The notes under the pieces: model-generated
The model's input: the letters and a program-made list of their open reading frames with translations, nothing else
Told to the model about the DNA's origin: nothing
Databases searched by the model: none
Position numbers and translations under genes: made by a program
In this document: one piece after another, positions 1 through 7,405 of the stretch
Position numbering within the stretch: position 1 is the stretch's first letter
How the letters are laid out: each line of letters starts with the position of its first letter
Assembly (NCBI RefSeq): GCF_003790525.1
Contig: NZ_CP033635.1
Length of the DNA stretch: 64,000 bases
Reading direction: 5' to 3' (one strand)
Origin: Escherichia coli
Lineage (GTDB): Bacteria; Pseudomonadota; Gammaproteobacteria; Enterobacterales; Enterobacteriaceae

Positions 1-306
1 CAGCACGACCAGCGGGCGGCCACGCACATTCATACCGTAGTTGGTGCGGCTCCGGCTGCTGACGTCAAGGCCAGGGATCAGCTGAGCCAGTGCGTCCTTA
101 AGCTCTTTGCCGCCCTGAATCTGCTGTTCCAGTTCGGCGTTTTCGATAACCCAGGTGGTTTGTGCCATCTCCGCTACGGTGCGATTGCTGCGGTTGGCAG
201 ACACCACGAACGTTTCATCATCGGTTTGTTGAGCGACTGCTGGCGCCATCATGGTAAGAAGCAGTGGGTTGAGAGCCCAAAGCGTATACTTTTTGCTTAT
301 CATCAT
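1..306 (-). CDS. iutA: ferric-aerobactin TonB-dependent outer-membrane receptor IutA, N-terminal part only (gene runs off the left edge of the window)
   Basis: Minus-strand translation from the ATG at complement 304-306 reads MMISKKYTLWALNPLLLTMMAPAVAQQTDDETFVVSANRSNRTVAEMAQ (signal peptide then TonB-box-like region); sits directly downstream of iucD as in the canonical iucABCD-iutA operon. The + strand ORF 160-441 is the antisense artefact. Confidence 0.8.
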   Translation of the reverse strand, partial: MMISKKYTLWALNPLLLTMMAPAVAQQTDDETFVVSANRSNRTVAEMAQTTWVIENAELEQQIQGGKELKDALAQLIPGLDVSSRSRTNYGMNVRGRPLVVL

Positions 307-387
307 TATTCCTCCACACGGGCGGAAAAAATCAGCCCAAAGATGCTGTGTAGCGAGTTAAAGAAGCAGCCTCCGGCTGCGTTTTCC

Positions 388-1665
388 CTAGGTGCCGCTG
401 CGCCACTGAATCAGGGCGGGCGGCATACTGAGATCGAATAAATCACGTCCCATTACACGATTAAGAATACGTGCAGATCTCCATGCCATCAGGCTGAGCT
501 GAGGTTCGGCGATGCCATGGGTTTGCATACTGGCGTTGACCACGAAGATGTTGTTCTCTTTCGGGCCACTCCATTCCAGAGTGAAGTCATCACGCACTTT
601 AAAGGTGTTCTTATCGTGCATGGTGATCAGCGGCATCAGTGAGGGAAGTATTTGTGGCAACGCAGAACGGTAACCTGTGGCGAAAATCACCACATCACTT
701 TCCAGGCTCTCCCTGCCCTGATCCAGATGATGCTCCATCAGCAACTTCCAGCCAGGACCACTACTTTCCAGAGTTGTTACCGAGCGGCTGGGTAGCAGAC
801 GGATATTTCTTGGTTTTCTCAGAACTTCAAAACGGTGGTACAACTCACGATAAATGGTCAGTAAAGAATCGGCAGTGATGCCATCCGATGTCATTTTCTG
901 CTCATCCAGTAACTGATGGCGAATATCTTCCTCCAGTCCGGAGAAGCCTGAAATATATTCAGGTGTAAAATACTCATCAGCAAAAGCAGCCTCATCCAGT
1001 GCGTTAAAATTATTCCGCCGGGAGATCCAGTTTATTTCCGCCGCTTCTCCCCATTCCCCGCGTAATGCATTAAGGAACAGGTCTGCACCACTCTGTCCTC
1101 CACCAACCACGGTTACCCGTTTTTCACTAAGGTCCGGCCGACGAAGATTCATTTCACTGGCATGGAAACAGGATTGTGTCATATGCTTCACACAGGGTGG
1201 TAAATAAGGTTGTTTTCCTGTACCAAGGCAGATATTGTGGGCAAAATATTCTCCCCGGCTGGTTTGCACCAGAAACAATCGACGTTTTTTATCGAAATCA
1301 ATGTTTTCAACGGTATGACTGAAATACAGGTTATTCATATCTTCAGCAGCCCAGCGGAGGTAGTCAGAAAACTCTTCACGGGATACTGTACGTAGTCTGC
1401 TTGTAAGGAAGCGATAGAACTTTTTGTGCTTCACCAGATAGTTAACAAAGCTGTAGGGATTTGTAGGTGCAACAGCACTGACCAGATCTTTCAGAAAGAC
1501 GGTCTGCATATGACAATCCGGTACCAGCATACCCGGATGCCAGGAAAAATGAGGATGTTCATCAAAGAAGAGACAGTCCAGTTCTTCGATCTGATGTGAC
1601 AACGCAGCAATGCTGAGATTAAATGGCCCTGTCCCTACACCAATAAAATCGACACTTTTTTTCAT
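388..1665 (-). CDS. iucD: L-lysine N6-monooxygenase (aerobactin biosynthesis)
   Basis: 425-aa ORF, N-terminal FAD-binding motif (IGVGTGPFNLSIAAL), recognised as IucD; start overlaps iucC stop by 4 nt (operon coupling). Confidence 0.9.
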   Translation of the reverse strand: MKKSVDFIGVGTGPFNLSIAALSHQIEELDCLFFDEHPHFSWHPGMLVPDCHMQTVFLKDLVSAVAPTNPYSFVNYLVKHKKFYRFLTSRLRTVSREEFSDYLRWAAEDMNNLYFSHTVENIDFDKKRRLFLVQTSRGEYFAHNICLGTGKQPYLPPCVKHMTQSCFHASEMNLRRPDLSEKRVTVVGGGQSGADLFLNALRGEWGEAAEINWISRRNNFNALDEAAFADEYFTPEYISGFSGLEEDIRHQLLDEQKMTSDGITADSLLTIYRELYHRFEVLRKPRNIRLLPSRSVTTLESSGPGWKLLMEHHLDQGRESLESDVVIFATGYRSALPQILPSLMPLITMHDKNTFKVRDDFTLEWSGPKENNIFVVNASMQTHGIAEPQLSLMAWRSARILNRVMGRDLFDLSMPPALIQWRSGT

Positions 1666-6118: not shown

Positions 6119-6137
6119 AATAATGATTATCATTATC
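6119..6137. promoter_or_regulatory. Fur box (iron-responsive operator) in the iucA / shiF divergent promoter region
   Basis: aataatgattatcattatc matches the 19-bp Fur consensus GATAATGATAATCATTATC at 17/19 positions; located just upstream of iucA as expected for the Fur-repressed aerobactin promoter. Confidence 0.65.
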
Positions 6138-6211
6138 AATGAGAAATGTTATTGTCAGAAAAATTAATTTTACAAATAAACACAATTAATACATGGTGTT
6201 GAAACATTACA

Positions 6212-7405
6212 ATGTCATCTAAGATCGAAGATACGCCCCAAAAAACCCTGTCCTGCTGGCCACTGGCGTTCAGTGCCGGTCTTCTCGGTATCGGACAGAA
6301 CGGTCTGCTGGTTGTACTCCCTGTTCTGGTCATACAGACAAATCTGAGTCTGTCTGTATGGGCTGCCCTGCTGATGCTGGGCTCAATGCTGTTTCTGCCA
6401 TCTTCCCCATGGTGGGGAAAGCAAATTTCCCTTACTGGCAGTAAGACTGTGGTGCTGTGGGCTCTGGGAGGATATGGCGTAAGCTTTACCCTGCTTGGGC
6501 TGGGAAGCGTGCTGATGGCTACCGGTGCCGTAACAAAAGCGGTGGGGTTGGGAATATTAATCATCGCCCGGATCGTCTACGGTCTGACCGTGTCAGCAAT
6601 GGTGCCAGCCTGTCAGGTCTGGGCATTGCAGAGAGCGGGAGATGGGAATCGCATGGCCGCTCTGGCAACCATCAGCTCCGGCCTGAGCTGCGGCAGGCTA
6701 TTCGGGCCGCTGTGCGCGGCGGCAATGTTGGTCATTCACCCTCTGGCGCCAGTGTGGATGCTGATGGCAGCGCCAGCGCTGGCACTGGTGATGCTTCTGC
6801 GGTTGCCCGGCACACCACCACAGCCCACACCGGAGCGCAAGAGCGTCAGCCTGAAGCGGGATTTCCTGCCTTATCTGCTTTGCGCAATGTTACTGGCTGC
6901 GGCAATGAGCATGATGCAGCTTGGACTTTCTCCAGCCCTTACTCGCCAGTTCGCCACTGATACCACCACTATTAGCCAACAGGTAGCGTGGTTGTTGGGG
7001 CTGTCCGCAATAGCTGCGCTTATCGCGCAGTTCGTGGTACTCCGTCCACAGCGCCTGACTCCAGTGGCTCTGCTCCTGAGTGCCGGGGTGTTGATGAGTA
7101 GTGGTCTGGCTATCATGCTCGCTGAACAGCTATGGTTGTTTTACCTAGGCTGTGCAGTGCTGTCATTTGGAGCTGCTCTGGCAACCCCCGCTTATCAACT
7201 TTTACTGAATGATAAGCTGGCCGACGGCGCAGGCGCGGGCTGGCTCGCTTGCAGTCACACACTTGGCTATGGGCTTTGCGCGTTGTTGGTACCATTGGTG
7301 TCGAAAACAGGTGTCGCAATAGCACTGATTGTGATGGCATTATTTGCCGCTGTATTATTTAGCATGGTGACTGTATTTATCTGGCGCTGCTGCAAAAGCA
7401 AGTAA
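6212..7405 (+). CDS. shiF: MFS-type membrane transporter divergent from iucA (ShiF-like)
   Basis: 397-aa highly hydrophobic ORF with many predicted TM segments, transcribed divergently from iucA; position and character match the shiF gene of Shigella SHI-2-type aerobactin islands (recalled, not searched). Confidence 0.65.
   Translation: MSSKIEDTPQKTLSCWPLAFSAGLLGIGQNGLLVVLPVLVIQTNLSLSVWAALLMLGSMLFLPSSPWWGKQISLTGSKTVVLWALGGYGVSFTLLGLGSVLMATGAVTKAVGLGILIIARIVYGLTVSAMVPACQVWALQRAGDGNRMAALATISSGLSCGRLFGPLCAAAMLVIHPLAPVWMLMAAPALALVMLLRLPGTPPQPTPERKSVSLKRDFLPYLLCAMLLAAAMSMMQLGLSPALTRQFATDTTTISQQVAWLLGLSAIAALIAQFVVLRPQRLTPVALLLSAGVLMSSGLAIMLAEQLWLFYLGCAVLSFGAALATPAYQLLLNDKLADGAGAGWLACSHTLGYGLCALLVPLVSKTGVAIALIVMALFAAVLFSMVTVFIWRCCKSK

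Follow-up and report, generated by a model that had tools for sequence, protein, structure and literature searches.

The aerobactin operon iutA-iucDCBA and a divergently transcribed gene of the shiF type occupy the first 7,405 positions of a 64,000-nucleotide stretch of Escherichia coli DNA (assembly GCF_003790525.1, contig NZ_CP033635.1; this whole stretch is referred to as the window). They are part of a genomic island that abuts the core gene ynjB. An earlier note, made from the sequence alone, had recognized this gene set, and the protein domains, the gene order and the Fur box that we found agree with it, 102 codons of iutA being present in the window. The island appears to be an integrative element of the P4 class that recombines with the short spacer between ynjA and ynjB and that descends from islands inserted at tRNA-Phe genes.

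An aerobactin operon with a divergent shiF gene

The four iuc open reading frames (ORFs) are tightly packed on the minus strand and include two nonribosomal peptide synthetase-independent siderophore (NIS) synthetases, IucA and IucC, each composed of an IucA_IucC and a FhuF domain (Table 1). Downstream of them, iutA starts at position 306 with ATGATGATAAGCAAAAAG, and its protein begins MMISKKYT. Only codons 1-102 are seen, a truncation that is due to the window edge and not to the genome; the gene has its full length (2202 bp) in the near-identical chromosome of NRZ14408. RefSeq names the NRZ14408 gene identical to positions 1662-3404 as iucC, and in chromosomes that are ~ 100% identical over window 1-12000 the annotated order is iutA, iucD, iucC, iucB, iucA and a major facilitator superfamily (MFS) transporter. 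Annotated iuc/iutA loci ~ 100% identical to the window operon were present in 50 E. coli genomes. In the aerobactin pathway, lysine is hydroxylated by IucD and the product is acetylated by IucB; IucA and IucC then condense two N6-acetyl-N6-hydroxylysines onto citrate, and ferric aerobactin is taken up through IutA. The carrier would be expected to produce the siderophore.

The 135-bp intergenic region between iucA and shiF contains a Fur box, GATAATGATAATCATTATT, with one mismatch to the 19-bp consensus, where 0.03 such matches are expected by chance. The box overlaps the -35 hexamer and the spacer of the iuc promoter, which is predicted to be strong, and the intergenic region in which it lies is shared by iucA and the divergent shiF-type gene. 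The encoded MFS protein falls into the same 90% cluster as proteins of Shigella flexneri and S. sonnei, its identity to the S. flexneri protein being only 91%. In work on plasmid pS88, nearly all of the aerobactin-positive strains that were examined had shiF beside the iuc operon, a Fur box was common to both, and aerobactin secretion was about halved when shiF was deleted (PMC6918656). Upon iron limitation, Fur would leave the box over the -35 and spacer region, the iuc and shiF transcription units would both fire, and ShiF would boost aerobactin secretion. Judged by its gene content, gene order and promoter region, window 1-7405 is the classical, already known aerobactin system with a divergent shiF and predicted control by Fur.

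The island ends within the ynjA-ynjB spacer

In E. coli K-12, ydjX, ydjY, ydjZ, ynjA, ynjB, ynjC and ynjD are co-directional, and the spacer from the ynjA stop codon to the ynjB ATG is 9 bp long (cgttcTTAAGGAGAGATGATG). The empty site (attB) of K-12 reads ynjA stop TAAGGAGAG, then the ynjB ATG. In the window, the sequence before ynjB is …ctagttttattccTAAGGAGAGATGATG, with the ATG at 29686, and the attachment site at this end of the island (attR) reads ttattccTAAGGAGagATG. When the junction was compared by Megablast with 5,426 complete E. coli genomes (breakpoints at query 394 and query 199), homology to island-free chromosomes began at window position 29673, which placed the junction at 29673-29683. 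The 7-bp core of the site, TAAGGAG, includes the Shine-Dalgarno sequence of ynjB and is separated from the start codon of this gene by 2 bp; in K-12 it lies within the ynjA-ynjB spacer. The earlier note had let the island stop about 200 bp upstream of ynjB. Its boundary near 29,500 is merely the end of the last ORF, the DUF4942 gene; the actual junction is TAAGGAG, and the 218 bp between the two are island DNA that forms one arm (P) of the attachment site.

The left end was identified in relatives. In NRZ14408, the island extends ~ 98 kb to the left of the ynjB junction, up to an intact integrase of 395 amino acids that adjoins ynjA. The junction there is cgttcTTAAGGAG joined to ggtactaccttcacttc, and the attachment site (attL) reads cgttcTTAAGGAGggtactacc, followed by the integrase. 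The arrangement of ynjA stop codon, TAAGGAG and intact P4-like integrase was found at the left end in 29 genomes. The direct repeats that the earlier note had suggested looking for at both island ends are thereby present: TAAGGAG forms a perfect 7-bp repeat at the two breakpoints of the empty site, extending to 13 bp (TTCYTAAGGAGRG) if two mismatches are allowed. Among the 5,426 genomes, attL was detected in 29 and attR in 28, and every other genome inspected had the empty site. The distance from attL to attR was 72-99 kb; in GF60 the two ends were separated by a rearrangement. The sole metagenome contig containing the arm between core and integrase start (P') was likewise joined to ynjA.

No RNA gene was found at the site. 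ARAGORN reported no tRNA or tmRNA in the 64-kb window, in 100 kb of NRZ14408 covering the island or at the K-12 site, and there was no Rfam RNA in the attL region or in window 1-31000. A tRNA, tmRNA or other RNA gene as the target was ruled out on the basis of these scans. The island does abut ynjB and not a tRNA, as had been proposed, and a left-hand tRNA with a matching repeat was found in none of the 29 complete genomes.

The island splits the ydjXYZ-ynjABCD operon and regenerates the ynjA stop codon on its left and the ynjB ribosome-binding site on its right. No sigma-70-like promoter or terminator was found in window 29300-29800, ahead of ynjB, and ynjBCD, separated by the island from the ydjX promoter, may be expressed by read-through. 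Two further observations concern this end of the island. The island genes from 22527 to 29458 all point toward ynjB, and the start of ynjB in SFE8 and SCU-115 is AAGATG in place of ATGATG.

Near-identical island ends in divergent chromosomes

We compared both junctions among carriers, the right one in the window, SFE8, SCU-115, LH10-b-1, DG341-1, L26, NRZ14408 and 135. On the right side, the last 3.5 kb of the island differed at 0-4 positions between the window and SFE8, SCU-115, LH10-b-1, DG341-1, L26 and NRZ14408; strain 135 diverged further inside the island, its last 560 bp being identical except for one base. In the adjoining core flank (ynjB to ynjE, 3,890 bp), any two carriers differed by 37-179 mismatches (1.0-4.6%), the first of which was located 10-89 bp from the junction. 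On the left side, there were 0-3 mismatches per 3.4 kb of island and 18-46 mismatches per 1,250 bp of the ydjZ-ynjA flank, the nearest being 13-82 bp from the junction. The flanks match those of island-free lineages: that of the window shows no mismatch to SMS-3-5 over the 3,890 bp, and that of LH10-b-1 differs from K-12 at 5 positions. The eight carriers thus represent eight flank haplotypes attached to the same island ends. Since vertical inheritance or co-transfer would leave shared flanks and none were seen, the simplest reading of these alignments is repeated, precise, integrase-mediated insertion at one site.

Integrase and attachment site resemble those of tRNA-Phe islands

The integrase has the P4-like domain composition Arm-DNA-bind_3, Phage_int_M and Phage_integrase. 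Near relatives in E. coli are located ~ 175 bp downstream of tRNA-Phe, at pheV in NCTC86 and at pheU in E16, with 85% nucleotide and 88% protein identity. In a collection of 5.8 billion proteins, the integrase belongs to a 90% cluster consisting of E. coli proteins throughout. A member of this cluster, P0121, is 94% identical; it occupies pheU or pheV or belongs to tandem arrays, in which it follows an integrative and conjugative element (ICE) with a 49-bp repeat of the tRNA-Phe 3' end. The relatives found in other species do not exceed 80% identity, and nearly all that were inspected adjoin tRNA-Phe, again ~ 175 bp downstream.

The arms of the attachment site point in the same direction. The P' arm shows 79% identity to its counterpart in the P0121 islands. 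A 23-mer from it was absent from 100,044 species-representative genomes, where relatives of the integrase reach no more than 79% identity and are located at tRNA-Phe almost without exception. Over 180 bp (window 29497-29676), the P arm shares 73-74% identity with the right ends of pheU/pheV islands, and this similarity continues to the last base ahead of TAAGGAG. The reconstructed attP of the ynjA type is …TAGTTTTATTCC TAAGGAG GGTACTACCTTCACTTCTAC… and that of the phe type is …CAGTTTCATTCC GAGTCCG GGCACCACCTTCACTTCTAC…; the two types have kept the core flanks ATTCC and GGGYACYAC but agree at only one of the 7 central positions. Written as a circle junction, the ynjA-type attP is …TTTTATTCC TAAGGAG GGTACTACC…, where GGTACTACC is the side toward the integrase. 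The piece of the tRNA 3' end that is rebuilt in phe islands, GGGCACCA, reads GGGTACTA in attL here. By integrase and arms, as far as sequence comparison can tell, the element is a derivative of tRNA-Phe islands with a core that now matches the ynjA-ynjB spacer.

Three observations on this integrase family stand apart. GGGGCC and GGGGGC motifs in short inverted or direct arrangements occur in both arms (window 29592-29612; L002 48150-48185), are kept in pheU/pheV islands and are candidate arm-type binding sites of the integrase. In Serratia oryzae (NZ_MOXD01000003.1), an integrase 72% identical to the ynjA type has no tRNA upstream and only a tRNA-like 3' remnant, TTCGAATCCCACTTCGGGTACCA; this may be another lineage that left its tRNA target. 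In the tandem arrays (L096, L098, L099, L011 and L021), the phe-type integrase comes after another element, which encodes ParA and DnaB and terminates in a 49-bp copy of the 3' half of tRNA-Phe.

The aerobactin module is cargo shared with plasmids

The genes iutA-iucDCBA-shiF form a 9.3-kb block that extends from 34 bp past the iutA stop codon to 8 bp past that of shiF (L001 17071-26413, corresponding to window -1929 to 7413). It is found with 98.7-98.9% nucleotide identity on many plasmids of the ColV/ColBM type, some of which also share sitABCD, located nearby, and the ISL3 remnant beside shiF (97.7-98.9% identity in the shared parts). The operon itself is well known, as the earlier note had stated. 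Going by nucleotide identity, the module is most closely related to copies on E. coli plasmids and chromosomes, and shiF is part of it wherever it occurs.

The island of relatives additionally harbours sitABCD, iha, sodC and a gene for a YadA-like adhesin. Decayed insertion sequence (IS) elements of the ISL3, IS3, IS256 and IS1 types surround the module, which is IS-bracketed cargo within a mosaic island of ~ 72-99 kb. At least 80% of window 1-12000 is present in 50 genomes, and only 29 show the ynjA junction. In XDL (NZ_CP043033.1 942744-1041999), the ynjA-ynjB site is empty, yet the same sit-iuc-iha block is present, ~ 100% identical over window 1-12000; there it adjoins nanX/nanY and a Dnd/Dpt defence cluster, and IS1 truncates it behind the YadA-like gene. 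Because a genome with an empty site carries the block elsewhere, the cargo moves between island scaffolds.

An inverted pair of IS256-family elements, ~ 80% identical to each other and consisting of an intact IS1414 and a frameshifted relative, brackets iutA-iuc-shiF (L001 13379-14645 and 28617-29881, the second corresponding to window 9617-10881). At this level of identity, the pair is too diverged for a recent composite transposon. We rejected a composite-transposon origin of the module, since the two flanking ISL3 remnants are not repeats of each other and this 80% pair was the only one found.

Beyond the module, the window continues with IS remnants and a CP4-like island backbone (Table 1). 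A gene for a YadA-like trimeric autotransporter adhesin (11731-13326, minus strand) adjoins one for a small sigma-70 region 4 protein (11214-11669, minus strand), a pair that suggests an adhesin and a dedicated regulator within the island. A stretch of low GC content (37-41%) at 19000-22500 contains the hypothetical ORFs 20599-21474 (plus strand) and 21471-22424 (minus strand); NRZ14408 has an additional IS3 copy at this position.

Table 1. Features of the window, with coordinates counted from its first nucleotide.
Feature	Position	Strand	Description
iutA, 5' end	1..306	-	Ferric-aerobactin outer-membrane receptor; matches TonB-dependent siderophore receptor model
In-window part of the 9.3-kb module iutA-iucDCBA-shiF	1..7413		Shared with ColV plasmids; right edge ~7413
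iucD	388..1665	-	L-lysine N6-monooxygenase, 425 aa; Pfam Lys_Orn_oxgnase (PF13434), E 1.6e-112
iucC	1662..3404	-	NIS-type aerobactin synthetase, 580 aa; IucA_IucC (PF04183) and FhuF (PF06276)
iucB	3404..4351	-	N6-hydroxylysine acetyltransferase, 315 aa; Acetyltransf_8 (PF13523), E 7e-53; RefSeq annotation
iucA	4352..6076	-	Aerobactin synthase, 574 aa from annotated ATG at 6076; IucA_IucC (PF04183) and FhuF (PF06276)
iuc promoter (predicted)	6111..6139	-	-35 TTGATA, 17-nt spacer, -10 CATAAT; 10/12 hexamer matches in promoter scan
Fur box	6119-6137		In the iucA-shiF intergenic region
shiF-type MFS transporter gene	6212..7405	+	397 aa; MFS_1; auxiliary aerobactin secretion factor (function per PMC6918656)
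Decayed IS remnants beside the module	7665..10897	+	ISL3 family, IS3-type integrase core, IS256-family gene; RefSeq annotation of identical NRZ14408 sequence
Transposase_mut (IS256 family) gene	9690-10850		Pfam
CP4-like island backbone	12766..29441	+	Pfam and annotation; block at other loci in other E. coli, 92-96% identity
alpA	17077-17313	-	AlpA family, candidate excision factor
YagK/YfjJ gene	18311-19042	-
GTPase gene	22527-23411
Antirestriction, RadC and YeeU genes	within 12766..29441
CbtA gene	27792-28166
DUF4942 gene	28673-29458		Last island ORF; last 17 bp beyond the end of the backbone part (29441)
P arm of attachment site	29459..29676	+	Island DNA, 218 bp between last ORF and core
attR core TAAGGAG	29677..29683	+	Extended form TTCYTAAGGAGRG, 29673-29685; comparison of attB (K-12), attL (NRZ14408) and attR (window)
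ynjB	29686..30855	+	First core gene; ABC transporter substrate-binding protein, SBP_bac_8

Proposed mechanism and alternative explanations

The best explanation of these data, to which we assign a probability of roughly 80%, is that a Fur-repressed aerobactin system is carried on a P4-class island that recombines with the ynjA-ynjB spacer and is descended from tRNA-Phe islands. An integrative element of the P4-like tyrosine-integrase class would recombine with TAAGGAG in the 9-bp spacer between the ynjA stop and the ynjB start. From the general behaviour of tyrosine integrases, the central 7 bp of attP (TAAGGAG for GAGTCCG) would be the strand-exchange overlap, and its exchange would have redirected the element to a new target; the exchange may have come about, as in saf mutants of lambda, when an insertion at a secondary site was excised. 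The element would still be mobile. We are more hesitant about the extended version of this explanation, to which we give slightly less than even odds: that the element is currently mobile, that a tRNA-Phe-specific P4-like integrase was naturally retargeted by replacing just the 7-bp attP overlap while arm sites and half-sites were kept, and that the island spreads an aerobactin/Sit/Iha package among unrelated lineages and rewires ynjBCD expression.

Several observations weigh against insertion by a dedicated, retargeted element. The window does not include the left end, so that the ynjA junction of this genome is taken from relatives, of which the best in the collection is 99.2% identical over window 12000-36000. 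The attB and attP sites share 7 perfect bases (11 of 13 in the extended core) as opposed to 19 bp at tRNA-Phe, and the B and B' half-sites of attB resemble attP poorly. The integrase differs from the pheU/pheV integrase at 24 amino acids, and there is no sign here that these matter. The ICE-type transfer genes of the island are pseudogenes, and the attP junction of an excised circle was not found in metagenome contigs. The last of these would also fit a single accidental insertion of an ordinary tRNA-Phe island at a secondary site, followed by vertical inheritance or homologous transfer together with its flanks, for which no dedicated specificity is needed; the integrase is just 6% away from true pheU/pheV integrases, attB is weakly similar to the tRNA-Phe core, and the island is rare (29 of 5,426 genomes). 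In lambda, resolution of the heteroduplex after a secondary-site event can leave the bacterial overlap at both junctions, and such an artefact of one event could produce TAAGGAG at both ends here, but not the recurrence. The eight haplotypes that match island-free lineages, with 1.0-4.6% divergence setting in within 10-89 bp on the right and 13-82 bp on the left of near-identical island ends, are not what co-transfer with flanks would leave behind, and the change of GGGCACCA to GGGTACTA has made the element unable to rebuild a functional tRNA-Phe. We therefore consider a single accident unlikely.

The aerobactin genes could instead have been placed beside ynjB by IS transposition or plasmid integration, the apparent island being IS debris. 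The 9.3-kb module, the ISL3 remnant and sitABCD are all common to ColV/ColBM plasmids at 97.7-98.9% identity, IS remnants surround the module, the inverted IS256-family pair brackets the region, and XDL has the same cargo elsewhere, cut off by IS1. IS-mediated shuffling and plasmid exchange do explain the entry of cargo and its movement within islands, but not the outer boundaries. The outer ends consist of phe-like attachment arms, with the integrase at one of them and the 7-bp repeat at the exact breakpoint of the empty site; no IS terminal inverted repeats or target-site duplications were present at the ynjA and ynjB junctions, and 22 kb separate the aerobactin module from ynjB. An origin of this kind is very improbable. 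Another question is whether the operon has decayed and lost its function, which is what the RefSeq label of iucD would imply: PGAP tags the iucD of NRZ14408 and of XDL, both identical to window 332-1665, as a pseudogene ("frameshifted"). However, no break interrupts the ORF at 388-1665, its protein is identical to IucD of pAPEC-O2-ColV at 419 of 425 positions (99%) over the full length with the same TAG stop, and the remaining iuc genes and shiF are all intact. The pseudogene status of iucD was rejected on the grounds of the intact ORF of 425 codons and the stop codon identical to that of the ColV copy. The label is probably an annotation artefact that arose from comparison with a longer reference protein, and decay of the operon is hardly credible.

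The operon, shiF and control by Fur were already known, and islands with P4-like integrases as well as elements with targets other than tRNA genes are also of known kinds; the switch of target site is neat, not surprising. What the analysis documents is a chromosomal, horizontally spreading aerobactin/sit/iha island whose carriers are poultry, swine and human isolates, in a site that would escape tRNA-based island finders. It also flags a mis-annotation in RefSeq, where an intact iucD is called a pseudogene. The pheU/pheV and ynjA-ynjB integrases (94% identity, homologous arms, 7-bp core exchanged) are a natural pair that could be used to probe target choice by P4-like integrases. Our literature search, within the corpus that could be searched, retrieved no paper linking ynjA or ynjB to an island, an integrase or aerobactin, although the island may still be described, and the published papers on NRZ14408 deal with topics other than the ynjA-ynjB island.

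Comparison with known systems

The ColV/ColBM plasmids pColV-K30, pAPEC-O2-ColV and pS88 have the same genes in the same order, with the same overlaps, Fur-box promoter and divergent shiF, and they have sitABCD and an ISL3 remnant near the aerobactin locus, as is the case here. They differ in that the locus described here is chromosomal and lies within an integrase-bounded island, and sitABCD is on the other side of the module in a different orientation.

SHI-2 is inserted at selC in S. flexneri and S. sonnei and SHI-3 at pheU in S. boydii; the gene organisation of aerobactin with shiF was first described in SHI-2. Both islands are of the P4-integrase type; they carry the aerobactin operon with an adjacent shiF (PMC6918656). 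Our comparison with them is one of ShiF protein identity and of descriptions rather than of island DNA. The designation "SHI-2/SHI-3-type" in the earlier note is apt for the gene organisation, and the proteins share the 90% ShiF cluster; moreover, the integrase lineage is of the tRNA-Phe type, as expected at the pheU site of SHI-3. As a statement of kinship the designation is too narrow, with the ColV/ColBM copies at 98.7-98.9% identity, the S. flexneri ShiF at 91% and an insertion site, ynjA-ynjB, that is neither selC nor pheU and has no tRNA.

The islands at pheV and pheU, such as the pathogenicity island at pheV beside kps, are close in integrase (88-94% identity), P' arm (79%) and P arm (74%). 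They share the CP4-like backbone of the right end, from YeeU/CbtA through DUF4942, and the core flanks ATTCC and GGGYAC are conserved. A phe-clade integrase and homologous arms are thus present here, whereas insertion at the 3' end of tRNA-Phe with a repeat of ~ 19 bp that rebuilds the tRNA is not found: the core has TAAGGAG where those islands have GAGTCCG, integration is into an intercistronic spacer, the repeat is 7 bp long (13 bp with 2 mismatches) instead of 19 bp, and the tRNA 3' end in attP is degenerate.

Targets other than tRNA genes are well known for tyrosine integrases. The attB site of lambda is located between gal and bio, and e14 and phage 21 insert at the 3' end of icd. Here, the integrase belongs to the P4 and tRNA-island clade, the site is a spacer with a stop codon and a Shine-Dalgarno sequence inside an operon, and the element is known from its sequence alone. 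It has in common with lambda, e14 and phage 21 a tyrosine integrase, a short overlap identity and an interrupted gene end that is regenerated by the element, and the mechanism proposed here, retargeting via a changed overlap, would be that of the saf and secondary-site derivatives of lambda.

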